Positions 2,808-59,424 of a stretch of 64,000 bases of DNA are shown here, one piece after another; the first letter of the stretch is position 1, and each line of letters begins with the position of its first letter. Below the pieces are notes generated by a model that was not told the DNA's origin, ran no database searches, and was given only the letters and a program-made list of their open reading frames with translations. Origin of the DNA: SAR202 cluster bacterium (GTDB taxonomy: Bacteria > Chloroflexota > Dehalococcoidia > Lucifugimonadales > UBA826); the NCBI GenBank assembly GCA_022447825.1, contig JAKUTY010000002.1, positions 11,963 to 75,962 of the forward strand, written 5' to 3'. The translations under genes and the position numbers were made by a program.

Positions 2808-3845
2808 TTGGAGATCAAGGTGGATATAAAAATCCTTTCTAATAAAATTAGTTTCAGAAATGCAAAAACTTTGGAGATTAAATCTTTGTTTAATTCCAAG
2901 TCTTTTGAAGATGCAGAGCAAATCGCGCTTGATATAATTCAAGAATTTCCTAATGATTTTCAAACTCATATGATCGTATCAAAAATTTATTTTGAACAAG
3001 ATAAAAGTTATGAAGCTCAGATGTATTTGCATAATGCATCTACATTAGAAAAATCTCTAAAAGAGCAAACACGTCAATCAATTGAATTTGCCATGCAATC
3101 TGATTGGGTAAACGCTATAGAGACTAACAAACTTATCATTGATTCTTTTCCATGGGAGCTTGAAGCATATAATCGGTTAGGGAAAGCTTTTTTGGAAAGA
3201 GGGAATAAAAAGGAATCATTGATTTCCTTTAAATGTGCTCTAGTGATTTCTCCTTCAAGTAAAATTGCTCAAAAAAATATAGAGAGACTTCAAAAAACTT
3301 CTAAACATAAAGCAACTATTGGTTCCCAGTCTAATAATTTAGGGCAAGCGTTTATTCAAGAGACTGGGAAAACTTGTGTTACTAAATTAGTAAATACTCC
3401 TGTTGGCTTTGATATATCCTCTTTAATTTCTGGACATCAAGTGCATTTAAAACAAAATGAAAGAGGCATATCAGTTACTGACCAGAATGATTCTAGGCTA
3501 GGAAATTTGGAGCCGAAATTAGGTTTGAGGTTAAGTCGGTTGATTTCTGGTGGGAATGAATATCAAGCTAATATTACACATGTTTCTGAGAATAATATCA
3601 ATTTGATTATTAGAGAAACTTTGAAGCACCCTTCACAATCCACAAAATCTTCATTCCCGGCAAAAATAGATATGATGAATGATATTTCTGGTCAAATGAT
3701 TCCTTATGAAATGAATGATGGAGGAAAATTAATGGATTTGAAGGATTGGAGTGATGATGATACTGAATCTGGAGATGATAATGTATTTACTCCTAGGATT
3801 CCTCAATTGATTGCGGACAAGTCACCCCTTGATGATGATTTCTAG
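2808..3845 (+). CDS. TPR-repeat protein with uncharacterised C-terminal domain and acidic tail
   Basis: TPR-like helical repeats in the N-terminal half (AYNRLGKAFLERGNKKESLISFKCALVISP). The more likely start is GTG 2820, 5 nt after GGAGA. The acidic tail ends in DDDF. Confidence 0.5.
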   Translation: MEIKVDIKILSNKISFRNAKTLEIKSLFNSKSFEDAEQIALDIIQEFPNDFQTHMIVSKIYFEQDKSYEAQMYLHNASTLEKSLKEQTRQSIEFAMQSDWVNAIETNKLIIDSFPWELEAYNRLGKAFLERGNKKESLISFKCALVISPSSKIAQKNIERLQKTSKHKATIGSQSNNLGQAFIQETGKTCVTKLVNTPVGFDISSLISGHQVHLKQNERGISVTDQNDSRLGNLEPKLGLRLSRLISGGNEYQANITHVSENNINLIIRETLKHPSQSTKSSFPAKIDMMNDISGQMIPYEMNDGGKLMDLKDWSDDDTESGDDNVFTPRIPQLIADKSPLDDDF

Positions 3846-12788: not shown

Positions 12789-13919
12789 TTGGCTAAATTA
12801 ACATCTGTGAATTCTAAAAATTTATCTAATGATAGTCGTCATGCTACTATTCAAGATCCCAATTTAAAAAAGAAAAATAGACTTGTATTTTTATCTTTAG
12901 GTGTTTCTTGTTCAATAATTTTGATAATGATTTTTATTGGATTTTTGCTAGTTTTTGTACTTCCCCCAAGACATTTGGTGGTTAGCATTAATGATGTTAA
13001 ATATACTAGAGGTGATTTGGTAGAGACGGTAAGAGTAAATAAGACTACTGAAATATTTTTAGGCCCTGATGCTGATAAGGGATCAACCATTTTTGATACA
13101 TTACAAAAAATAGTTGAAAATGAAATAATATCTCAATCTGCTCCCTCATATGGTGTAAGCGTAACCAATTCAGAAATTGATAGCATAATTGAATATGTGA
13201 TGCAATCTACTGAAGATCAAAATTCTGGTAAAACAAAACAGCAGATTCAGTTAGAAACCCGGGAAAGATATTTGAGATACTTAAATCAAGTCCAAGTAGA
13301 TGAAGATTCTCATAAAGAACAATTAAGAAAAGCTTTATTAAGAGAAAAAATGAAACAGTGGTCCGGAGAAACAGTACCTTATGTGGCTGAACAAGTACAT
13401 TTGTTTAGAATGTTAATTCCATTGTCGGGCGAATATGAGATTATGCAAACTAACTATAGTGACGCCGTAAAAAATGCTCTAACTTCAGAAGACTATGAAG
13501 ACGCATTTAAATATTTAGCCAAAGAATTTTCGGTAGATGATCCTATTATGATTAGGCAAGGTGGTGATATGGGATGGGTTCCAAAAGGAGTTATTGAATA
13601 CGAAAGAGACTTTTTTGATTTGGAAATAGGTGAATTGAGTGATCCAATCAAAAATAAAGATAACCCGTCTACAATGATATTTTTTATGGTTTCTGATAAA
13701 CAAACTGCTGCTGAGTTAGATCAGTCTATGAGAGAAAAACTCAAAACTAATGCGTTACAAAAATGGGTAAATAAAGAAAGAAGTCGGCACGATATTTTTG
13801 CTGAGTTTAACTCAGACGTATATGCTTGGGTAGGCGAACAACTGAAATTAAATGATCGTTCACCTACTCCAACTCCTAATCCAGATCCCTTACAACAATT
13901 TATTTCAAGTGGAAGTTAA
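12789..13919 (+). CDS. membrane-anchored PpiC/parvulin-type peptidyl-prolyl isomerase (SurA/PrsA-like)
   Basis: N-terminal TM helix and parvulin motif GGDMGWVPKG near the C-terminal third. Confidence 0.7.
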   Translation: MAKLTSVNSKNLSNDSRHATIQDPNLKKKNRLVFLSLGVSCSIILIMIFIGFLLVFVLPPRHLVVSINDVKYTRGDLVETVRVNKTTEIFLGPDADKGSTIFDTLQKIVENEIISQSAPSYGVSVTNSEIDSIIEYVMQSTEDQNSGKTKQQIQLETRERYLRYLNQVQVDEDSHKEQLRKALLREKMKQWSGETVPYVAEQVHLFRMLIPLSGEYEIMQTNYSDAVKNALTSEDYEDAFKYLAKEFSVDDPIMIRQGGDMGWVPKGVIEYERDFFDLEIGELSDPIKNKDNPSTMIFFMVSDKQTAAELDQSMREKLKTNALQKWVNKERSRHDIFAEFNSDVYAWVGEQLKLNDRSPTPTPNPDPLQQFISSGS

Positions 13920-13920
13920 A

Positions 13921-15207
13921 ATGGCAAAGGAAATTGGAGTTTCCTTATTAGGCTTAGGGGTAGTTGGATCTGGAATTGCACAACAATTAATTGCAAAAGA
14001 ACATACTTATACGCAACAAGTAGGATCGAAACTTGTTTTAAATCATGTTCTAGTGAGAGATAAAAATAAGAATAGAGATATTCAAATTTCTCAGCAATTG
14101 TTTGCTGATTCTATTGATCAAATAATAAATGATGACAAAACTGACATCGTAATTGAAGTAATTGGCGGAGAAGAGCCTGCTAAATCGTTTATCACTCAAG
14201 CTTTAAATAGCAAAAAACATGTTGTTACTGCTAATAAAGAATTAATTGCAAAGCATGGCCCTGAACTGATTTCTGTGGCTAGAGAAAATAATGTAAGAAT
14301 CTTGTTTGAAGCTAGTGTCGCTGGAGGTACCCCTATAATTGCTCCAGTATTGAGAGATTTCTCTGGTAATAATATTACTTCTATCAAAGCAATTATTAAT
14401 GGGACTACCAATTATATTTTGTCACGTATGTCTACAGAAAATGCTGATTATTTTGAAGTATTGAAAGATGCGCAAAAGTTAGGTTATGCAGAATCTGATC
14501 CCACCAATGATGTTGAAGGGATTGATGCTGCATACAAATTATCGATTTTGTCTTCACTAAGTTATAAATCGTTTGTGAAAGATTCTGATGTCTATTGTGA
14601 AGGAATTACCAATATTTCTGCTAAAGATTTTCAAATCGCAAAAGAATTGGGCTATGAAATTAAACTTATAGCTTTTTCAGAATTTAAAGATAATAAAGTT
14701 TCAGCAAGGGTACACCCTACTTTAATTTCAAAGAATCAAATGCTTGCTAATGTTCATGGCGTGTTAAATTCCGTTCAAATAGAAACTGATTTGATAGGAG
14801 AAGTTCTTTTTCATGGTGCTGGAGCAGGTTCTTTGCCAACAGCTAGTGCTGTTTTGGCTGATGTAATTGATATTTCTAGAAATATCTCATCAGGATTTGT
14901 TAATTTGGATTATATGAATATAGACCAAAATGCATCTATTGTTGAAATTTCAAACTTGAATACTAAATATTACATTCGAGTTTCTGCAAATGACGAGCCG
15001 GGTGTTTTATCTAGAATTTCGACTATTCTTGCTGATCATAAAATTAGCATTGCTTCATTTATTCAAAAGAGTTCACATGAAGGGATAGCTGAATTAGTAA
15101 TTATGACTCATGAAGCACTTGAGAAATCAATTCAGGAAGCATTAAATCAGATTAGAAATTTAAGTGTTGTAAAAGCTATAGAAAATTCGATTAGGGTAAT
15201 GGATTGA
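13921..15207 (+). CDS. hom: homoserine dehydrogenase with C-terminal ACT domain
   Basis: GLGVVGSG NAD(P) motif; GYAESDPTNDVEGIDAAYKL catalytic-region motif. Start set to ATG 13921 (MAKEIG), right after the upstream stop, rather than the track's 13852. Confidence 0.9.
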   Translation: MAKEIGVSLLGLGVVGSGIAQQLIAKEHTYTQQVGSKLVLNHVLVRDKNKNRDIQISQQLFADSIDQIINDDKTDIVIEVIGGEEPAKSFITQALNSKKHVVTANKELIAKHGPELISVARENNVRILFEASVAGGTPIIAPVLRDFSGNNITSIKAIINGTTNYILSRMSTENADYFEVLKDAQKLGYAESDPTNDVEGIDAAYKLSILSSLSYKSFVKDSDVYCEGITNISAKDFQIAKELGYEIKLIAFSEFKDNKVSARVHPTLISKNQMLANVHGVLNSVQIETDLIGEVLFHGAGAGSLPTASAVLADVIDISRNISSGFVNLDYMNIDQNASIVEISNLNTKYYIRVSANDEPGVLSRISTILADHKISIASFIQKSSHEGIAELVIMTHEALEKSIQEALNQIRNLSVVKAIENSIRVMD

Positions 15208-15563
15208 TAAATATAGAATTTTTTTATTGGAACAAATGAAGTTCTTGTAAAAAAGTGAAAGAGTCTCTTTTACATAAAGGATTTCATTTATTACTAGAGA
15301 GAGACTTTTTTATTAATCGTTTTACTAGAGAAGAGTTGGTTGATTTGTTTGAGAATCATAACGTATTTGACTTTTTATCTATCAAAAGTCCTTCATTTAA
15401 GAAGTTACAAATTGATTTAGAAAAACTTTCAGTAGAAGGGGCTATTGACTTGATGCTTGATGAGCCTAGATTGATAAGAAGGCCACTTTTGAAAATTGGG
15501 AATCAAATATTTGTTGGAGATGTTAAGTTAAGTTTTGTAAACAACTTAGAATTATTACCATAA
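15204..15563 (+). CDS. Spx/ArsC-family thiol-redox protein, candidate selenoprotein (TGA 15237-15239 read as Sec)
   Basis: The frame is open from TTG 15204 except for one TGA. Translation MINIEFFYWNK-U-SSCKKVKESL matches the family N-terminus, with U in place of the first Cys of CxxC. Downstream family motifs are SIKSPSFKKL and RLIRRPLL. The track ORF (GTG 15255) lacks the redox motif. Confidence 0.6.
15255..15273 (+). promoter_or_regulatory. candidate bacterial SECIS hairpin
   Basis: GUGAAAGA / UCUUUUAC form an 8-bp stem (one G-U) with loop GUC. The hairpin starts 15 nt after the UGA, and the apical loop begins 23 nt after the UGA. Confidence 0.35.
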
Positions 15564-15593
15564 AAAAAGGGATTCCACTGGAATCCCTTTTTT
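15562..15593. terminator. bidirectional intrinsic terminator between convergent genes
   Basis: A7 (15562-15568), GGGATTCC (15569-15576), loop ACT, GGAATCCC (15580-15587), T6 (15588-15593). Confidence 0.8.
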
Positions 15594-15613: not shown

Positions 15614-16690
15614 TTAGTTCTTCTTGAAAAGAAGTATTCCACCACTGGTAACTACTAGCAAGGCTCCTAATACTAGAGATAATTGCATTGTAATTGTTAA
15701 AAATTTATCTCCTACACTAGGAAGTCCTAGTCCTAACACAGATGTATTAACTGACTTGCCATCAATAGTTGATGCTTCTAAATCGCCCTCTATCACAGAT
15801 AAAGAACCTAATCCTTGTGCAGCTTCTATTGCTTTGTGTATTCCTCCAGCACCAGGTATTTCAACTCGGTTACCGTCTGAATCATATTCAAATTTGTCTG
15901 GAAGACCGTTAAGGATTGCATGTGAGTCAGCAACAGATCCACCGGATGCACTTCCTACATATGTTTGAGCTACTGCAAGTGAAGAAGTTCCAGATACACT
16001 AGAGTTATTAGCTTCAATTGAAGCTATCCAAGTATTGATGTTAGTTACTATAGCATCAACACCAGATACGTCTAAACTCTCATCGGTACTTTTGACATTT
16101 GCACTAGCAGATGAAATATTTTCAACTGCTGTTTTTAAGTCACTAATGTCTGAATTACTACTTTCAACACTTGTTTGAATAGATTCTAATGTTGTCGAAG
16201 AGCTTGCTGTTTCTAGGTTTGTTTTAAGTGAATTTGCACTTTCTTTAGCATCGTTAATACTTGAAACTAAGGCAGATACAGATGCACTATTTGCATAACT
16301 ATTACTAGCACTGTATGTGTTTGATGAATTTTCTAATATAAATCTGCTATATTTTGATAGTAAATTAGTACCATCGTAAGCAGCGCTTGAAGAGTCAAAT
16401 GTGAAATCGATTGATCCTGTACTTTGAACTACTCCTTGCAGTGTTGCTACTTCAACATCTACATCAGAAAGTTTAAATTGTTGTCCATCTGAAGAAATTA
16501 AAGATGCTGTGTAACTTCCAGGGGCTATTCCTGAAACTGAAATGATAGCCGAGTCATTGTGCCCAGCATCATCAGCGAATGTTACTGTACCGTATACAAC
16601 TGGATCATTAGCCTCAGCAATTGATCCAAATGGTATTGCAAATGTAAATATAGTAAGAGCAAATATGGCTATAGTCTTGATTCTGAACAT
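15614..16690 (-). CDS. secreted Ser/Ala/Thr-rich surface protein with C-terminal anchor
   Basis: N-terminal signal peptide (MFRIKTIAIFALTIFTFAIPFGSIAEA). Low-complexity S/A/T-rich body. C-terminal LPSVGD, then a hydrophobic helix, then a KKN tail. AAGGAGG SD. Confidence 0.5.
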   Translation of the reverse strand: MFRIKTIAIFALTIFTFAIPFGSIAEANDPVVYGTVTFADDAGHNDSAIISVSGIAPGSYTASLISSDGQQFKLSDVDVEVATLQGVVQSTGSIDFTFDSSSAAYDGTNLLSKYSRFILENSSNTYSASNSYANSASVSALVSSINDAKESANSLKTNLETASSSTTLESIQTSVESSNSDISDLKTAVENISSASANVKSTDESLDVSGVDAIVTNINTWIASIEANNSSVSGTSSLAVAQTYVGSASGGSVADSHAILNGLPDKFEYDSDGNRVEIPGAGGIHKAIEAAQGLGSLSVIEGDLEASTIDGKSVNTSVLGLGLPSVGDKFLTITMQLSLVLGALLVVTSGGILLFKKN

Positions 16691-23003: not shown

Positions 23004-24638
23004 TTACTGTTTAATATTTATTGCTTTATCGAGTTTATCGTTAAATTGCTTTTCAGTAAGCTTACCGTCTTTCATTTCTTGAACTATATCTGTAACTGAT
23101 TGCTGTGCCTCATTCTTTTCCATACCGTAATTGTCAGAAGGTTTAACTTTGCGGTTTTCCATGATTTGGTCCATTGGTTGGGGACCCATAGCTGAAAAAT
23201 CACCAAAAGCTTTATCAGAGCATTCTTTTCTAGCATCAGGATCGAATCCATTTGACTTCATGCATGCTTTAATCATGTCTGAAACGGCATGTTGGTTAGG
23301 TTCCGGCAGAATACTTACAAAATCTTTGTTACCAGTAACTTGTTCAACCATAGCTTCTTTGGCTGCAAATTTTACAAAGTCATCTTTTGTATTAAAGTTA
23401 TTACCACCTTTGTCATATGATTTGTGAGCTTCAACTACAGCATTTTTAGTTGATTCAATAAATTTTCCGATCTGAGGTTCATCTATTACGATCGGAGTTA
23501 TAGCTTTAAATGTTTTCTCTGCCTGAGTCATACAAGTTTTAGTTGCAACGTCAGAAATTGATGGATCTCCTTGTGCTAAAGAAACACATTCCGATAATTC
23601 TGAAGATACTTTATCTGCAGCAGCGTCAATAATGATTTGTTGAGCTATAGTTTCTTCGTTAGTAATACCTGCTGCTCTGTATGCATTTTTAGCTAGAGCT
23701 TCACAAGCTATTTTTGATTTTCCTGATTCTATACAGTTTTTTGCAGAAGTTGCTGATACTCCTGCTGCTGTTTCAACAGATGACTCAGTAATCATTTTTG
23801 TGAGTTCTTTTGCATCTTCTTTGTCTATATTTTTATCGTATAGTAAATCTTCAACTGCTTCTTTGAAATTAGGATTTTCTACTTCATCATTAGCTAAGAT
23901 GATTTGATTCCTGGCTTCTCTGGCTTCTTTTGTGTCAGCCTGGAGAGCAGTACTTAAAGCTTCTGGGTTTGCACCAATAATTTGTTGCATTACCTGAATC
24001 ATTTTTTCGGATTCTTCACCCAAGCCTTTTAGTTCGTCTTTTTCAAATTCATCCATGCCTGAATCGAAGTGCATTTCGTCAATTTCCTGATACAACTCTT
24101 GTATGTGTTGATCAAGGAGAGCTAATTCAGTATGGAGGCCATCTATTTCTAACCTTTGAATTCTTTCAAGCTCAGTTTCTTTAGGTTCCATTAAAATCTG
24201 CATTAATCGATCTTTAAGTGCATTTGTTTCTTCAGAGAATGCTTGCTGTGATGCATTTTGATCTAATCCAGATAAATAGGCGTTACCAATATCCATAACC
24301 TCTGAATATTGAGGGTGAACGATCATTGTTGATTCATCTTGTAAGATGATTCCTGTTGTTGATGTGTTGTCTGGCATCATTATATCTGGACTAATACCAT
24401 TTAACTTATCAAGCATTTGAGTAATTACATCTCTAGCTTCATTCATTTCTTGATGTAAATTTTGAACTTCTTCAGTGTGCCTTTGATCGATTTCAATCAG
24501 AATTGATTGTAATTCATCCTCATTAGTGACTACTTCACCTGCTCCAGTAGCAAGCCCTATTGCTGAACCGCATGCTACAGACGCAATAGCCGTAACACTC
24601 ATCGCTGCAAAAACTAGTAAGTTCTTAATGCTTTTCAT
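23004..24638 (-). CDS. acidic, helical lipoprotein of unknown function
   Basis: Signal peptide with lipobox (AIASVA|C). 544 aa, rich in E/D/K/Q. Paired Cys residues in the C-terminal half. Confidence 0.5.
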   Translation of the reverse strand: MKSIKNLLVFAAMSVTAIASVACGSAIGLATGAGEVVTNEDELQSILIEIDQRHTEEVQNLHQEMNEARDVITQMLDKLNGISPDIMMPDNTSTTGIILQDESTMIVHPQYSEVMDIGNAYLSGLDQNASQQAFSEETNALKDRLMQILMEPKETELERIQRLEIDGLHTELALLDQHIQELYQEIDEMHFDSGMDEFEKDELKGLGEESEKMIQVMQQIIGANPEALSTALQADTKEAREARNQIILANDEVENPNFKEAVEDLLYDKNIDKEDAKELTKMITESSVETAAGVSATSAKNCIESGKSKIACEALAKNAYRAAGITNEETIAQQIIIDAAADKVSSELSECVSLAQGDPSISDVATKTCMTQAEKTFKAITPIVIDEPQIGKFIESTKNAVVEAHKSYDKGGNNFNTKDDFVKFAAKEAMVEQVTGNKDFVSILPEPNQHAVSDMIKACMKSNGFDPDARKECSDKAFGDFSAMGPQPMDQIMENRKVKPSDNYGMEKNEAQQSVTDIVQEMKDGKLTEKQFNDKLDKAINIKQ

Positions 24639-35692: not shown

Positions 35693-37642
35693 ATGAAGCT
35701 GACTCGAGCACGAGTAACTAACTACAGAAGTATAGATGATTCAACGTGGGTGAATTTAGAAGATGTCACTGCTTTAGTTGGCAAAAATGAATCTGGAAAA
35801 ACAGCCTTTCTTCAGGCTTTGAGAAAAATTAATTCTATTGCCGGAATTGAAGATCAATTTAGTATTAGAGATTATCCACGTAAAGGATACATAAAATATA
35901 AGAAAATTCATCAAGAAAATCCCGGTACTGTTGTTCAAGCTGAATTTCAATTATCTGAAGCTGAGTTTACCGAAATCGAATCTTTTTTCGGTAAAGGAAT
36001 TTTAAGTACAGATACTGTCGTAGTAGGAATGAATTATAAAAACGAAAGATCTTGGGACATCGAAATTTCTTCTGCAGTTATAAATCAGCCACAACAATCT
36101 TCATCAGAAATTGAATTAATTTGCAAACAAATTGAAGATGAATTTCTTGAAAAATGGTTGCCTAAGTTTGTTTATTTTGATAACTACAGCATTATGCGTG
36201 GGAAACTTTCCATTAATGATCTGCAAGATCGTTTGAAAACTAACGGCCCTTTAGATGATGCTGATAGAACATTTTTGTCACTTTTAACTTTATCGGGAGT
36301 TTCATTAGAAGATCTGCAACAAGATTTAGGATATGAAGATATTAAAGTTGAATTGGAATCTGCGTCTATAAATATTACCGACGAGATATTTGAATATTGG
36401 CATCAAAATCGACAATTAAAAGTAGAATTTGATGTATCTCAAGCAGACCCTAGAGACCCGGCACCATTAAATGAAGGAAAGATTTTACACGTACGAATTG
36501 AAAATTCTAGGCATAGAGTAACAGTATCTTTTGATGAAAGATCAAAAGGTTTTGTTTGGTTTTTCTCTTTCTTGGCATATTTTTCTCATTTAGAAGAAAC
36601 AGAATCTAGTGATTTGGTAATTTTATTAGATGAGCCTGGGACTGCATTGCATGCAATGGCTCAGAAAGATTTTTTAAGATTCATGGATGAAAGATTAGCT
36701 CCAAGATGCCAAGTTGTTTATTCTACACACTCCCCATTTATGGTTGATTTACAAAAATTACAAAGAGTTCGTACAGTTCAAGATATGGATGGTAAAGGTA
36801 CTGTAATTAGTCAGGATGCTAGTAAAAACGACCGTGAGACAGTTTTTCCGTTACAAATGGCTCTTGGGTATCAAATGGCCCAAACATTATTTATGGCCCC
36901 TCATTGCTTGATGGTCAATAATCCTTCTGACCTTATATATTTACAAGTCATGGGAAATTTAGTTTCTAGAGACTTTGACATTAGAATTGATCCTAGGTGG
37001 GTGATTATTCCAATAGGTGGTACTGAGAATTTATCTACATTTATTTCTTTATTGGGTGAAAATTATGTGAGTGTAGCTGTAATGATGGATATTACCCCCA
37101 CTAATAGGCAAAAAATTGATGATATCAATCAGTCAACTCAAACCTTTATAGATAACCCGGTTAAATGGGTAGAAGTAACTAGAATAAGAGATGCTGATAT
37201 TGAAGATTTATTTCCACCCAATCTTTATTTGGACTTGGTTAATCAAGCCTATGGGAATCAATTAAAAGAACCTTTGACAATGAAATTGATTACTGACAGG
37301 AATCCTAGAATTGTAGAAAGAATTTCTTTATATTTTGATAAAAATAACATCTGTGGAGGTGTTTTTGACAGATATATTCCAGCTGCTTATTTATTAGAAA
37401 ATTTTCACGTTTGGCAGAATTTAATCCCACCAGAAACAGTTGAGAAAATCTCTACTTTAATTTCTAAAATCAATTCTTTGTTGGCAGATAGTCAAGAAAA
37501 AGATATAGATCAAAAATCTAATCTTTCTATAGACTCTAATGAAAATAGATCGGAATCAAATAAAGATTCAGTATCTCCATTTGATTCGATTATTTCTGAA
37601 ATAGATGAGTCTACTAATTTTCCTGTACAAACGCAGTTCTAA
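35693..37642 (+). CDS. OLD-family-like ABC/SMC-type ATPase with C-terminal TOPRIM-like region (apparently degenerate)
   Basis: The N-terminus (NYRSIDD...ALVGKNESGKTAFLQAL, Walker A at 35780-35803) resembles OLD/AAA_15 ATPases. Signature-like RSKGFVWFFSF, Walker B VILLDEPGTALH and H-loop STHSP follow. Residues ~406-469 follow the OLD TOPRIM layout, but read VNNPSD and DIT where E-G and DxD are expected. The C-terminal tail looks disordered. Confidence 0.65.
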   Translation: MKLTRARVTNYRSIDDSTWVNLEDVTALVGKNESGKTAFLQALRKINSIAGIEDQFSIRDYPRKGYIKYKKIHQENPGTVVQAEFQLSEAEFTEIESFFGKGILSTDTVVVGMNYKNERSWDIEISSAVINQPQQSSSEIELICKQIEDEFLEKWLPKFVYFDNYSIMRGKLSINDLQDRLKTNGPLDDADRTFLSLLTLSGVSLEDLQQDLGYEDIKVELESASINITDEIFEYWHQNRQLKVEFDVSQADPRDPAPLNEGKILHVRIENSRHRVTVSFDERSKGFVWFFSFLAYFSHLEETESSDLVILLDEPGTALHAMAQKDFLRFMDERLAPRCQVVYSTHSPFMVDLQKLQRVRTVQDMDGKGTVISQDASKNDRETVFPLQMALGYQMAQTLFMAPHCLMVNNPSDLIYLQVMGNLVSRDFDIRIDPRWVIIPIGGTENLSTFISLLGENYVSVAVMMDITPTNRQKIDDINQSTQTFIDNPVKWVEVTRIRDADIEDLFPPNLYLDLVNQAYGNQLKEPLTMKLITDRNPRIVERISLYFDKNNICGGVFDRYIPAAYLLENFHVWQNLIPPETVEKISTLISKINSLLADSQEKDIDQKSNLSIDSNENRSESNKDSVSPFDSIISEIDESTNFPVQTQF

Positions 37643-57088: not shown

Positions 57089-57430
57089 TTAGTCTATATA
57101 CATTCCAAGTGCTCTCCCTCCAAGTAAATGAAGATGTGCATGAGGTTGAGATTGCATACCGTCATTGCCAAAATTAGAGAGGATTCTATATCCGTTTGGG
57201 CATAACTTTTTACCTAAATCATTAGCGCACTTGCCCATTTTAGATAAAAGTTCACCAGAGTTCCACAATTCATACTGAGTTAAGTGATTTGTGGGAACAA
57301 TCAATAGCTGAGTTGGCAACCAATTTAGGTTGTTTTCAAATACTACGAAATCTTCAGATCTATAGTGGAATTTAGCTGGAGATTGATCAGAAATTATTTC
57401 GCAAAAAATACAACTTTGGGAATCATCCAT
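57089..57430 (-). CDS. HIT-family nucleotide hydrolase/transferase
   Basis: CIFCEI N-terminus and histidine triad HAHLHLLGG. Confidence 0.85.
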   Translation of the reverse strand: MDDSQSCIFCEIISDQSPAKFHYRSEDFVVFENNLNWLPTQLLIVPTNHLTQYELWNSGELLSKMGKCANDLGKKLCPNGYRILSNFGNDGMQSQPHAHLHLLGGRALGMYID

Positions 57431-58814
57431 TGTACTGTCTGTAATTTGGTGCTGTGATTTCTATACATATTCCTATAGAAGGATCGGCTATTCTAGAAGC
57501 AGTAGCATTATTTTGATTTGTTACTTCTAGAGGAATGTTTTTTCGAGAAGTAATAATAGTTGTAAGTCGATGGTCATGCCTGTAAGCAATTAATTGAAAA
57601 AGCTTTTCTTTTCCCCAATCTGTAATTACTCCAGAGCCTAAATCATCTAATATTAGAACTTGACTCTGTTTTATTTCTTCAAAAATACTATCTCCATCAA
57701 GTTGGTTTCTAGGATCATTAGATTTTCTTAAATAATCTATCATGTCAGGAGTTCTGAAGAATAAAACTTCTAAGTCTTGCTTTAAGAGTTCGTTTCCTAT
57801 AGCGACAGCTAAATGAGTTTTTCCAACTCCAGTAGTATTATCGCTCCAAAAGCAAAGCCAAGTATCTTTTGGCTCGGATACAAATTCTTTAGCTGTTTTT
57901 AGAGAGCCAGTTAAATTACTTACAACTGATTGGGGTGCTGCAGATCCTTGTGCCCCAGAAACCTTGAAATTTTCAAATGAAAAATTCTTGAAACTTTTTG
58001 GTATTTGTCCAAAATTATTATTTTGTAAAAAGTATGTATTTTTTAAATTGCCAGTATTAATTAATTGGTTAGTATTATTAGACTTTAACCTGCTTTGTAA
58101 GTATGGATCTAAATTAGAAATGTTCTCTGATGTTGTAATAACAGTTGGGAGGTTTTTTATGTTTCTATGGTTCAATATTTGTAATATTTTTTCAGATGCC
58201 CATGTAGAGTTACTTGTTTTTGAGATTCCATCGAGAATTAAGACAGGGTAATTACGAATCTGATCAAGTAAATCATCATATAGAAATGTTTCGGGATTTT
58301 GAAATACTGATCTGAATCTATCAAGTAAATCTGGTAAAAACATAAAAAGTACTGAATCGCCATTTTGAATGCATTGATTGCCTATTGCTGCTGCTAAATA
58401 GGTTTTTCCTGATCCGTTCGGCCCTTGGATAGTCAGCCATCCGGACGGGTTTTTGGAATATTTTTTTGAAACTTTTAATGCTTCTCTAAATTTTTCAACA
58501 TTATCTTTCCCTTCTAAATTTCCTTTTGATTGTATGTTTTCAAAAGTTAGATGAGACATTGCCTCTAAATTACTATATTCAATACGTTTTTGGATAATTT
58601 CAGGGTTGTGAGCACTTTTTTTACATGAAGGGCAAACAATTAAATCTCCAAAGTTTTCGTGCCAAATTGGTACTGTAGATGTTAGCCAGCCTTTGTCTTG
58701 GCACTCGTCACATTTAAACACTACTGGTTTTATCTCGGAGTTTTTTTTATTTGTAGGATCTAACGAAGGGTTAGAAGCTTTGAGTTTTTCTAGAATTTGT
58801 TGCAGATTCTGCAC
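57423..58814 (-). CDS. helicase-loader-like protein: zinc ribbon plus two tandem DnaC/DnaI-type AAA+ modules
   Basis: CDEC...CPSC zinc ribbon. Module 1: TFENI, GPNGSGKT, VLILDG. Module 2: SFENF, TTGVGKTH, VLILDDLG. The likely start is GTG 58814, 7 nt after AAGGA (58826-58822). The track's ATG 58943 would overlap the upstream gene by 173 nt. Confidence 0.65.
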   Translation of the reverse strand: MQNLQQILEKLKASNPSLDPTNKKNSEIKPVVFKCDECQDKGWLTSTVPIWHENFGDLIVCPSCKKSAHNPEIIQKRIEYSNLEAMSHLTFENIQSKGNLEGKDNVEKFREALKVSKKYSKNPSGWLTIQGPNGSGKTYLAAAIGNQCIQNGDSVLFMFLPDLLDRFRSVFQNPETFLYDDLLDQIRNYPVLILDGISKTSNSTWASEKILQILNHRNIKNLPTVITTSENISNLDPYLQSRLKSNNTNQLINTGNLKNTYFLQNNNFGQIPKSFKNFSFENFKVSGAQGSAAPQSVVSNLTGSLKTAKEFVSEPKDTWLCFWSDNTTGVGKTHLAVAIGNELLKQDLEVLFFRTPDMIDYLRKSNDPRNQLDGDSIFEEIKQSQVLILDDLGSGVITDWGKEKLFQLIAYRHDHRLTTIITSRKNIPLEVTNQNNATASRIADPSIGICIEITAPNYRQYNG

Positions 58815-59424
58815 TATATTTTCCTTGTATATTCCATTTGGTAAGTATAGATGAGATATAGGACCAATTTCTTTTGTTATTTTTGACAGCTTCACTGAAT
58901 GCTTCATTGATCCAGTCTGATGGATAAATTTCTTCTGCTTCACGTAATTTTTCAGCTATTATTGGTGTTAATGTAGAGATATTTTGTTCGTAAAGAGTGA
59001 AAATATTGGGAGTAAGTTCATCAGCTTCCCATGGTTCTAATGATTCATCTGGATTTGCTGAGAATCCATGGGGGATATTTCTATTAAATTTTGTGTTTAA
59101 AAGATAACTTGTTTCTTGATTAGATTTTGAGACAACTTGAATGATTAATTCTAGGGTAATTAAGTTATTTAATGAATTTTTAATGATCTGCTTTTTGTCG
59201 GATTGAGGATGGGTTTTTTGTAATGTTCTCATCAGAATTCTGTCAGATAATAGTTCGTCAATTGAACAAAATAGATATTTACCTTTTTTGGTTTGGCTCA
59301 AATAAATTACTCTTAATAATATTTTGAAATCTGTGATATCTTCAATGTTTTCTAATATTTGATTGAATATATTTACTGGAAGTCCTAAATATTTGGTTGA
59401 GTCAGGGAATCCTTTTGATTGCAT
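58771..59424 (-). CDS. DnaD/DnaB_2-domain replication initiation protein
   Basis: C-terminal NIFTLYEQNISTLTPIIAEKL...AVKNNKRNWSYISSILTKW matches the DnaD C-terminal (DnaB_2) domain. Located between dnaB and the loader. Confidence 0.7.
   Translation of the reverse strand: MQSKGFPDSTKYLGLPVNIFNQILENIEDITDFKILLRVIYLSQTKKGKYLFCSIDELLSDRILMRTLQKTHPQSDKKQIIKNSLNNLITLELIIQVVSKSNQETSYLLNTKFNRNIPHGFSANPDESLEPWEADELTPNIFTLYEQNISTLTPIIAEKLREAEEIYPSDWINEAFSEAVKNNKRNWSYISSILTKWNIQGKYSAESATNSRKTQSF

Follow-up and report, generated by a model that had tools for sequence, protein, structure and literature searches.

Arsenate reductase-like proteins that carry selenocysteine (Sec) in a UxxC motif have been on published selenoprotein lists since 2008, and this family is therefore already known. 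In the selenoproteome of the Global Ocean Sampling (GOS) data, an "Arsenate reductase 2, cd03032, UxxC" family was reported with 42 Sec sequences (Zhang and Gladyshev, 2008; PMC2398784), and an "Arsenate reductase-like protein, COG1393, UxxC" is listed in a 2022 review, in which bacterial selenocysteine insertion sequence (SECIS) elements are described in general terms (PMC9312934). In BSepDB, two Dehalococcoidia genomes with 46-49 selenoproteins rank among the ten richest bacteria (PMC13326102). In the present work, a 64,000-nt stretch of DNA from a SAR202 cluster bacterium of the Dehalococcoidia (contig JAKUTY010000002.1, positions 11,963 to 75,962; hereafter the window) was analyzed. Positions 15204-15563 (+) of the window, directly downstream of hom, very probably encode a 119-residue selenoprotein with the thioredoxin-like ArsC/Spx fold, in which a UGA codon would be read as Sec by means of a SECIS element and would contribute to a Sec/Cys redox pair. 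The window gene is a further, unannotated member of the family published in 2008; what is new here is the delineation of its subfamily, the near-exclusive use of Sec in two phyla, a covarying minimal SECIS and a gap in annotation.

In the list of open reading frames (ORFs), the locus is represented by a 102-residue ORF with a GTG start at 15255-15563 (+). The earlier note on this DNA, which was made from the sequence alone, had described this ORF and had claimed that its frame is open back to TTG 15204 except for one TGA, and both statements were borne out by translation: 15204-15563 (+) reads LINIEFFYWNK-stop-SSCKKVKESLLHKG...LELLP-stop, with TGA 15237-15239 as the sole internal stop. The complete coding sequence would thus consist of 119 sense codons followed by the TAA stop codon at 15561-15563, and its product would be M-INIEFFYWNK-U-SSC-KKVKESL...EPRLIRRPL...LELLP. 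As had also been noted, the TTG start codon (15204-15206, read directly from the sequence) overlaps the hom stop codon TGA (15205-15207). This TTG is retained in two relatives (L001 and L007), and an ATG is found 10-13 codons upstream of the UGA in 69 of 80 orthologs. No promoter-like site was found in a scan between hom and the selenoprotein gene, and translational coupling of the two genes is likely.

The in-frame UGA at 15237-15239 (+) corresponds to residue 12, with which the UxxC motif begins, and it aligns exactly with Cys10 of the C10-x-x-C13 motif of Spx, which agrees with the earlier proposal that the TGA falls on the first Cys of a CxxC motif. The codon TGT at 15246-15248 (+) encodes Cys15, the putative resolving cysteine of this motif, which is invariant in the protein alignment (A3) and is always encoded by TGT or TGC in the nucleotide alignment (A2, columns 10-12). 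The GTG at 15255-15257 (+), used as the start in gene calls, would in fact encode Val18 at the beginning of the SECIS stem; most orthologs have GCG, GCA or ACG there. A product beginning at this GTG would be without strand beta1 and the UxxC motif, so the expectation that the catalytic motif is lost without the 17 upstream codons was correct. When the 102-residue ORF was compared with the Pfam ArsC profile (PF03960), it passed the threshold with 36.9 bits over residues 36-88, whereas the 119-residue protein (with U written as C) scored 50.2 bits against a cutoff of 24 over residues 9-105, beginning at profile position 3. Given this increase, the 17 upstream codons carry family signal.

The statement in the earlier note that ArsC-like Sec families had been reported from marine metagenomes holds, and the window subfamily is itself included in the supplement to PMC2398784. 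Under the entry "Arsenate reductase 2 UxxC" of supplementary file 3, the reads JCVI_READ_1095390070075 (VTFYYWKKUTTCRKVRD...EPRLIRRPLI), JCVI_READ_1318105 and JCVI_READ_1121231 share the subfamily signature YxW.K-U-xxC ... SP[SA][FV]KK ... EPRLI[RK]RPL. By BLASTP, the window protein matched these supplement reads over nearly the full length, with 46% identity to JCVI_READ_1095390070075 (E 6e-31) and 41% identity to JCVI_READ_1318105 (E 5e-28); the former read, as given there, is almost identical to a SAR202 ortholog (L011). The window protein and the GOS group have in common the N-terminal UxxC, the ArsC/Spx (cd03032) domain and the marine origin, but the GOS group mixes two subfamilies, and most of its reads have the pattern VDWYY.R.G-U-TTC ... 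GN[LM]RAPT. Among the reads in the accessible part of the supplement, the exact ortholog of the window protein was not found. The SECIS, the taxonomy and the near-exclusive Sec use of the window subfamily are not described in PMC2398784.

Relatives were collected by a profile-driven scan with one genome per GTDB species; 280 were found, and the best-scoring 80 loci were examined. These 80 belong to the Dehalococcoidia/SAR202/Chloroflexota and to Smithella/Syntrophaceae, and thus to two phyla. The column of the UGA codon contained TGA in 78 of the 80 species loci and TGC in the other two (L018 and L060), and Cys occupies the same column in the orthologs P0021, P0027 and L323, forming a Sec/Cys pair with the UGA forms. 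When protein sequences were searched, 43 homologs were obtained, nearly all of 70-103 residues and covering only the part after the UGA; the only full-length matches were P0021 and P0027, both beginning METVFLYWWKK-C-SSCRKV. In the DNA upstream of the truncated calls, an in-frame TGA was found in the same column after a conserved open frame, as in the syntenic loci L001 (80% identity) and L007 (70% identity), and a homolog of 63% GC (guanine plus cytosine) content (L008) has the same in-frame TGA, reading MPEAAFYWWKR-stop-SSCRKV. The reconstructed ortholog proteins are 113-124 residues long with U at residue 11-14, and the 10-13 codons upstream of the UGA are open and conserved across the loci, with the N-terminal pattern [FY][FY]xWx[KR]-U-xxC-[RK]K. 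No further frame disruptions were found in the relatives. In a comparison with L007, a member of the same low-GC lineage as the window, three synonymous changes and one non-synonymous change were counted in the 11 codons that precede the UGA. These results answer the checks suggested in the earlier note, since the alignment of homologs extends over residues 1-17, the column contains Sec (TGA) or, in rare cases, Cys, and relatives show an otherwise undisrupted frame. Based on these loci, the subfamily is predicted to use Sec almost exclusively (78 of the 80 examined) across two phyla.

The hairpin that had been pointed out at 15255-15273 (+), 15 nt after the UGA and inside the coding sequence, was recovered as the minimum-free-energy structure of the local RNA (GUGAAAGA-GUC-UCUUUUAC), with an 8-bp stem (15255-15262 paired with 15266-15273) and an apical loop of three nucleotides (15263-15265, GUC). 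An ungapped alignment of 80 distinct sequences (A2), in which the stem occupies columns 19-26 and 30-37, was used to examine its conservation. Of 640 stem cells, 95.9% were paired, and when the 3' partner was slid by 1-3 columns as a control, only 35-70% were paired. Conservation of the hairpin in orthologs had been named as a check in the earlier note, and compensatory changes on both sides were observed in five of the eight stem pairs; 91 double-change cells were counted, compared with 30.7 +/- 6.1 in shuffled alignments, and none of 500 shuffles reached 91. The same helix was recovered independently by RNAalifold. Column 21, a third codon position, has A exclusively in sequences with U in the partner column 35 (17/0 versus 24/35; Fisher p = 4e-6, uncorrected for phylogeny), and this covariation is unpredicted by protein-coding constraint. 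Each of the 78 Sec forms has a G at loop position 1 or 2, and all eight pairs are intact in 63 of them, while the Cys forms (n = 3) keep 6-7 pairs and two of the three have lost the loop G; the weakening of the hairpin in these three Cys forms is suggestive.

The window element resembles bacterial SECIS elements of the E. coli fdhF type (bSECISearch consensus) in that it is a stem-loop within the coding sequence directly 3' of the UGA, its distance from the UGA is fixed and its apical loop contains a conserved G. It differs from them in being very compact, with a perfect 8-bp stem, a 3-nt loop and no bulged U. At one orthologous locus (L323, 2387-2752), the Cys-form gene for P0021, with TGT in place of TGA, lies in the rpsF-ssb-rpsR context common to many Sec forms. 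This Sec/Cys switch is accompanied by decay of the hairpin, in that an otherwise invariant G-C pair is broken and the RNA fails to form the hairpin on folding.

TGA is an ordinary stop codon elsewhere in the window, as had been stated: it ends 9 of 46 domain-supported genes, hom and rsmG included, and was never found inside them, so that any recoding at 15237-15239 would be site-specific. Genes for Sec insertion were found in other genomes that carry the UGA-form gene. A tRNA-Sec gene lies 9 kb from the ortholog in L031; among the matches listed for a generic tRNA-Sec pattern, the assemblies CAWEZF01 and DFZJ01 also carry the UGA-form gene, and among those listed for a Chloroflexota tRNA-Sec pattern, CAZMZE01, JAWOCP01 and CBDBQI01 are further assemblies with both genes. 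tRNA-SeC was called by ARAGORN in L198 and L206 and in 117 of 121 Chloroflexota-pattern loci. E. coli sequences of SelA, SelB and SelD were used as tblastn probes for locating candidates only, and the candidates were then verified with NCBIfam models. In this way, SelB (TIGR00475, 365 bits against a cutoff of 242) was found in JAWOCP01 in addition to the tRNA-Sec and the UGA-form gene, and the flanks of Dehalococcoidia tRNA-Sec genes were found to encode SelD (361 bits against a cutoff of 125) and SelA (561 against 268) as well. A predicted Sec machinery is thus present in the class and in other gene-carrying genomes.

Three further observations were made among these loci. A SelD-like tblastn match near the ortholog in L077 was rejected as a generic AIR-synthase-family protein (78.8 bits against the SelD cutoff of 125). 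The SelD gene of a Dehalococcoidia genome (L319, 3864-4958, -) has an in-frame TGA at the catalytic position (…SVRGAG-stop-AAKIGPS…), and its mechanical ORF is cut back to model position 34; SelD is itself a predicted selenoprotein in this genome. The Chloroflexota tRNA-Sec genes (L103, L118, L148, L166, L190, L195 and L209-L322) share a distinctive 5' half (GGGAGYGRATGRGNCCCGGTGG....C.CGGACTTCAAATCCG), which was seen in Chloroflexota only among the matches listed with record titles and could be a lineage marker for Sec use.

Taken as a selenoprotein gene, the locus would be co-transcribed with hom and translated from the TTG that overlaps the hom stop codon, and the ribosome would insert Sec at UGA 15237-15239 rather than terminate. 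The 8-bp hairpin with its G-first triloop would act as the SECIS that recruits SelB-GTP-Sec-tRNA(Sec), as suggested by its covariation and by the established bacterial mechanism. Sec12 and Cys15, placed at the junction of beta1 and alpha1, would form a U-x-x-C selenol/thiol redox pair, and the protein would most likely act as a small selenol-dependent oxidoreductase or reductase. Several results weigh against this interpretation. Folded as a single sequence, the hairpin has an unremarkable energy (z -0.94 to -1.72). Rfam yielded nothing at gathering level for the window, the hairpin included, and when 15180-15340 was scanned permissively, the output consisted of miRNA/sRNA noise below threshold, without any SECIS family. 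No tRNA gene at all was called by ARAGORN in the 64-kb window, and hence no tRNA-Sec and no suppressor tRNA; SelA, SelB and SelD were not found in Pfam scans of 30 sizeable window ORFs, nor were sel genes found in the 10 kb past the right end of the window (L324-L326), which contain clpC, two tRNA-Ser genes, topA, xerC, aroQ, efp and xseA. Among 240 sampled Chloroflexota-type tRNA-Sec loci listed from a genome scan and a metagenome scan, none had the composition of the window (34.5% GC), a result that does not count as evidence of absence: the lowest GC contents were 38.7-39.7%, and tetranucleotide correlations were at most 0.85 compared with 0.95-0.99 for true relatives. A scan of the window for in-frame TGA codons with nearby Cys/Ser/Thr yielded off-frame noise only and no second selenoprotein candidate, and no conserved redox-partner neighbourhood emerged from the gene-neighbourhood analysis. 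The significance of the hairpin comes from the comparison across species (TGA in 78 of 80 loci and covariation of the stem), not from the energy of a single sequence.

That no Sec genes were found in the window or in the 10 kb adjoining its right end would suit a pseudogene, in which a TGT-to-TGA nonsense mutation, a single base change, had struck an otherwise normal ArsC/Spx-like gene with CxxC and had left the similarity upstream as a decaying remnant. One mutation cannot explain a state conserved over about 40-80% protein divergence, with the same TGA in 78 of 80 species of two phyla, no additional frame disruptions, mostly synonymous change upstream and a covarying hairpin downstream; a pseudogene is very improbable and appears effectively refuted by the comparative data. 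The same loci bear on the proposal that the true product is the 102-residue protein from GTG 15255, in which case the UGA would end a short ORF of 11 codons that lies upstream and is coupled to hom, and the hairpin would be regulatory or simply reflect coding constraint. Public gene calls do use this GTG or a similar downstream start, and the shorter product still passes the Pfam ArsC threshold, but it would lack an integral strand and the entire UxxC of a thioredoxin-like fold, the upstream peptide is homologous to Spx/ArsC N-termini, and orthologs of the Cys form have the full length. Gene calls begin at scattered places and yield products of 70-103 residues, because the GTG position is a non-start codon in most orthologs, and such a product can hardly be considered probable. 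The conserved TGA column and the open, mostly synonymously changing upstream codons therefore effectively exclude both a pseudogene and a true start at 15255. It might still be supposed that read-through of the UGA inserts Trp, Cys or Gly, whether through near-cognate decoding, by means of a suppressor tRNA or under a genetic code with TGA reassigned, as the absence of Sec-tRNA and SelB genes from the window and the adjacent 10 kb would allow. Reassignment conflicts with the use of TGA as a stop in well-supported window genes and with its absence inside them, and no suppressor tRNA was found in the window; the rare homologs without TGA have Cys in the column, as in the classic pairing of Sec with Cys, the hairpin at a fixed distance is SECIS-like and its loop G is conserved, and gene-carrying genomes also have tRNA-Sec and SelB. 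Non-Sec read-through is accordingly given very little probability, and decoding of the UGA as Sec is preferred.

To place the predicted selenoprotein within its superfamily, the family profile was compared with known structures. Spx gave the best scores (82 bits for 3L78 and 80 bits for 1Z3E), followed by YffB (54) and glutaredoxin-coupled ArsC (about 46); the match to the Spx structures spans profile positions 4-114, and U12-S-S-C15 aligns with C10-T-S-C13 of Spx. The natural Cys-form ortholog P0021 was used as a structural proxy for the window protein. Its AlphaFold model (pLDDT, a per-residue confidence score, 86; predicted template-modelling score, pTM, 0.77) has the CxxC at the beta1/alpha1 junction, and with this model Foldseek ranked Spx first (template-modelling score, TM, 0.82; root-mean-square deviation, RMSD, 1.8 A; 36-37% identity), followed by YffB and ArsC (TM 0.78-0.80; 20-26% identity). 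The invariant residues of the subfamily are W9, U/C12, C15, R33-D34, F36, E44, S62-P63 and E87-P88-R89-x-I91-R92-R93-P94. With glutaredoxin-coupled ArsC (E. coli R773; PDB 1I9D) and YffB (PDB 1RW1), the subfamily shares the fold and the [NR]RP motif, and with ArsC R773 also the position of the nucleophile (ArsC Cys12), but ArsC has a single Cys and no CxxC whereas the subfamily has UxxC. As for the Arg60/Arg94/Arg107 triad of ArsC, the alignments to ArsC structures stop at about residue 97-99, so that Arg107 has no counterpart in the window protein.

Among NCBIfam models, the best match was TIGR01617 (Spx/MgsR), on which the window protein scored 52.8 bits, below the cutoff of 75.05, and its relatives 57-76 bits, with only P0021 passing (76.0). 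The Spx-specific models NF002459, NF009885 and NF009210 gave scores far below their cutoffs (49.7 against 123 for NF002459), as did the ArsC equivalog TIGR00014 (20.8 against 106). The R(R)P motif and a basic residue equivalent to Spx R60 are shared with the Spx/MgsR proteins (B. subtilis Spx; PDB 1Z3E, 3GFK and 7F75; TIGR01617). The subfamily differs from Spx in having Sec for Cys10, in the absence of the last ~15 C-terminal residues of Spx and, in the alignment with 1Z3E, in a 2-residue deletion beside the position of Gly52, where the column is variable and contains no Gly (Asn53 in the window). Gly52 is needed by Spx for binding the C-terminal domain of the RNA polymerase alpha subunit. The taxa differ as well, the subfamily occurring in Chloroflexota and Desulfobacterota, whereas the characterised Spx proteins, to our knowledge, come from Firmicutes. 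From these scores and alignments, the subfamily appears to be not clearly Spx.

These similarities leave room for a different function, in which the protein would be a true Spx-type regulator binding the RNA polymerase alpha C-terminal domain and the U-x-x-C would be a selenium redox switch instead of a catalytic centre. The first rank of Spx in both sequence and structure, the best NCBIfam match to TIGR01617 with P0021 just over its cutoff, and the conserved RRP motif and R60-equivalent residue all speak for such a role, while the sub-threshold score of the window protein itself, the altered Gly52 region, the missing C-terminus and the taxonomic distribution speak against it, as does the fact that known prokaryotic selenoproteins are mostly redox enzymes (PMC9312934). 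The evidence allows but does not favour a Sec-based Spx-type regulator, which is considered unlikely. If it were one, it would be the first known transcription factor that is a selenoprotein, and transcription in Dehalococcoidia/SAR202 and Smithella would respond directly to selenium status and oxidative stress. Judged from fold and motif, an oxidoreductase or reductase is more likely than an RNA-polymerase-binding regulator, and the product is most likely a small Sec-dependent redox protein with a UxxC predicted to form a selenenylsulfide.

The sole ArsC-selenoprotein model of NCBIfam, NF041106 (ArsC_rel_Se_1, "ArsC family (seleno)protein"), likewise describes an ArsC fold with an N-terminal UxxC selenocysteine, but it models the other GOS subgroup: the GOS read JCVI_READ_17177 scored 116 bits against the cutoff of 85, compared with 22.7 bits for the window protein and 28-32 for its relatives. 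The window protein and its relatives thus constitute a separate subfamily (22-32 bits) that is not captured by NF041106, and no NCBIfam selenoprotein model covering it was found. The uniformly truncated public calls fit with this position outside NF041106. In the 90% cluster of the window protein, all 22 listed members have at most 102 residues, and MCH2310821.1 is named "hypothetical protein", in keeping with the prediction that standard gene callers would miss the locus. A dedicated subfamily model combined with a SECIS pattern (8-bp stem, G-first triloop and 15-nt spacer) would correct hundreds of annotations in Dehalococcoidia/SAR202 and Smithella, and the selenoproteomes of abundant ocean bacteria would then be counted more accurately. 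Since both UxxC selenoproteins of the ArsC/Spx-like kind and Dehalococcoidia rich in selenoproteins have been published, no new question is opened and no view is overturned; a near-exclusively Sec family that is most similar to the redox-sensing regulator Spx is nevertheless a reasonable target for biochemistry.

Directly after the stop codon, at 15562-15593, lies a strong hairpin between an A-tract and a T-tract (-21 kcal/mol; z -5.35), whose stability was reached by none of 200 shuffles. It was missed by a simple terminator scan and is probably a bidirectional intrinsic terminator common to the selenoprotein gene and the convergent gene at 15614-16690 (-). The latter encodes a 358-residue protein that is rich in Ser, Ala and Thr and has no Pfam match. 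Its N-terminus is hydrophobic, and its C-terminal end, where LPSVGD precedes a hydrophobic helix and KKN, looks similar to a sorting signal of the sortase type; the gene is kept beside the selenoprotein gene in eight loci. The gene neighbourhoods reflected lineage synteny only, with rpsF-ssb-rpsR-(ppiC)-hom in 13-16 loci and mutS/mutL in nine. The longest hom ORF (451 residues) overlaps the upstream ppiC-like ORF by 68 nt (13852-13919), and its orthologs are called at 428 residues; for these two reasons, the real hom start is probably the ATG at ~13921 (MAKEIGVS...).

Elsewhere in the window, two ORFs without a Pfam match were found at 2808-3845 (+; 345 residues) and 23004-24638 (-; 544 residues), and the position of the second is conserved in L001 and L007. 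A 649-residue AAA_15/AAA_21 ATPase with an OLD/AbiEii-like architecture, encoded at 35693-37642 (+) amid housekeeping genes, may be a defence-related ATPase. At 57423-59424 (-), a gene for an IstB/DnaC-like AAA+ ATPase (an ORF of 506 residues, called at 463 residues in relatives) overlaps a DnaB_2 (DnaD-like) gene directly upstream of dnaB, and the two look like a helicase-loader pair.

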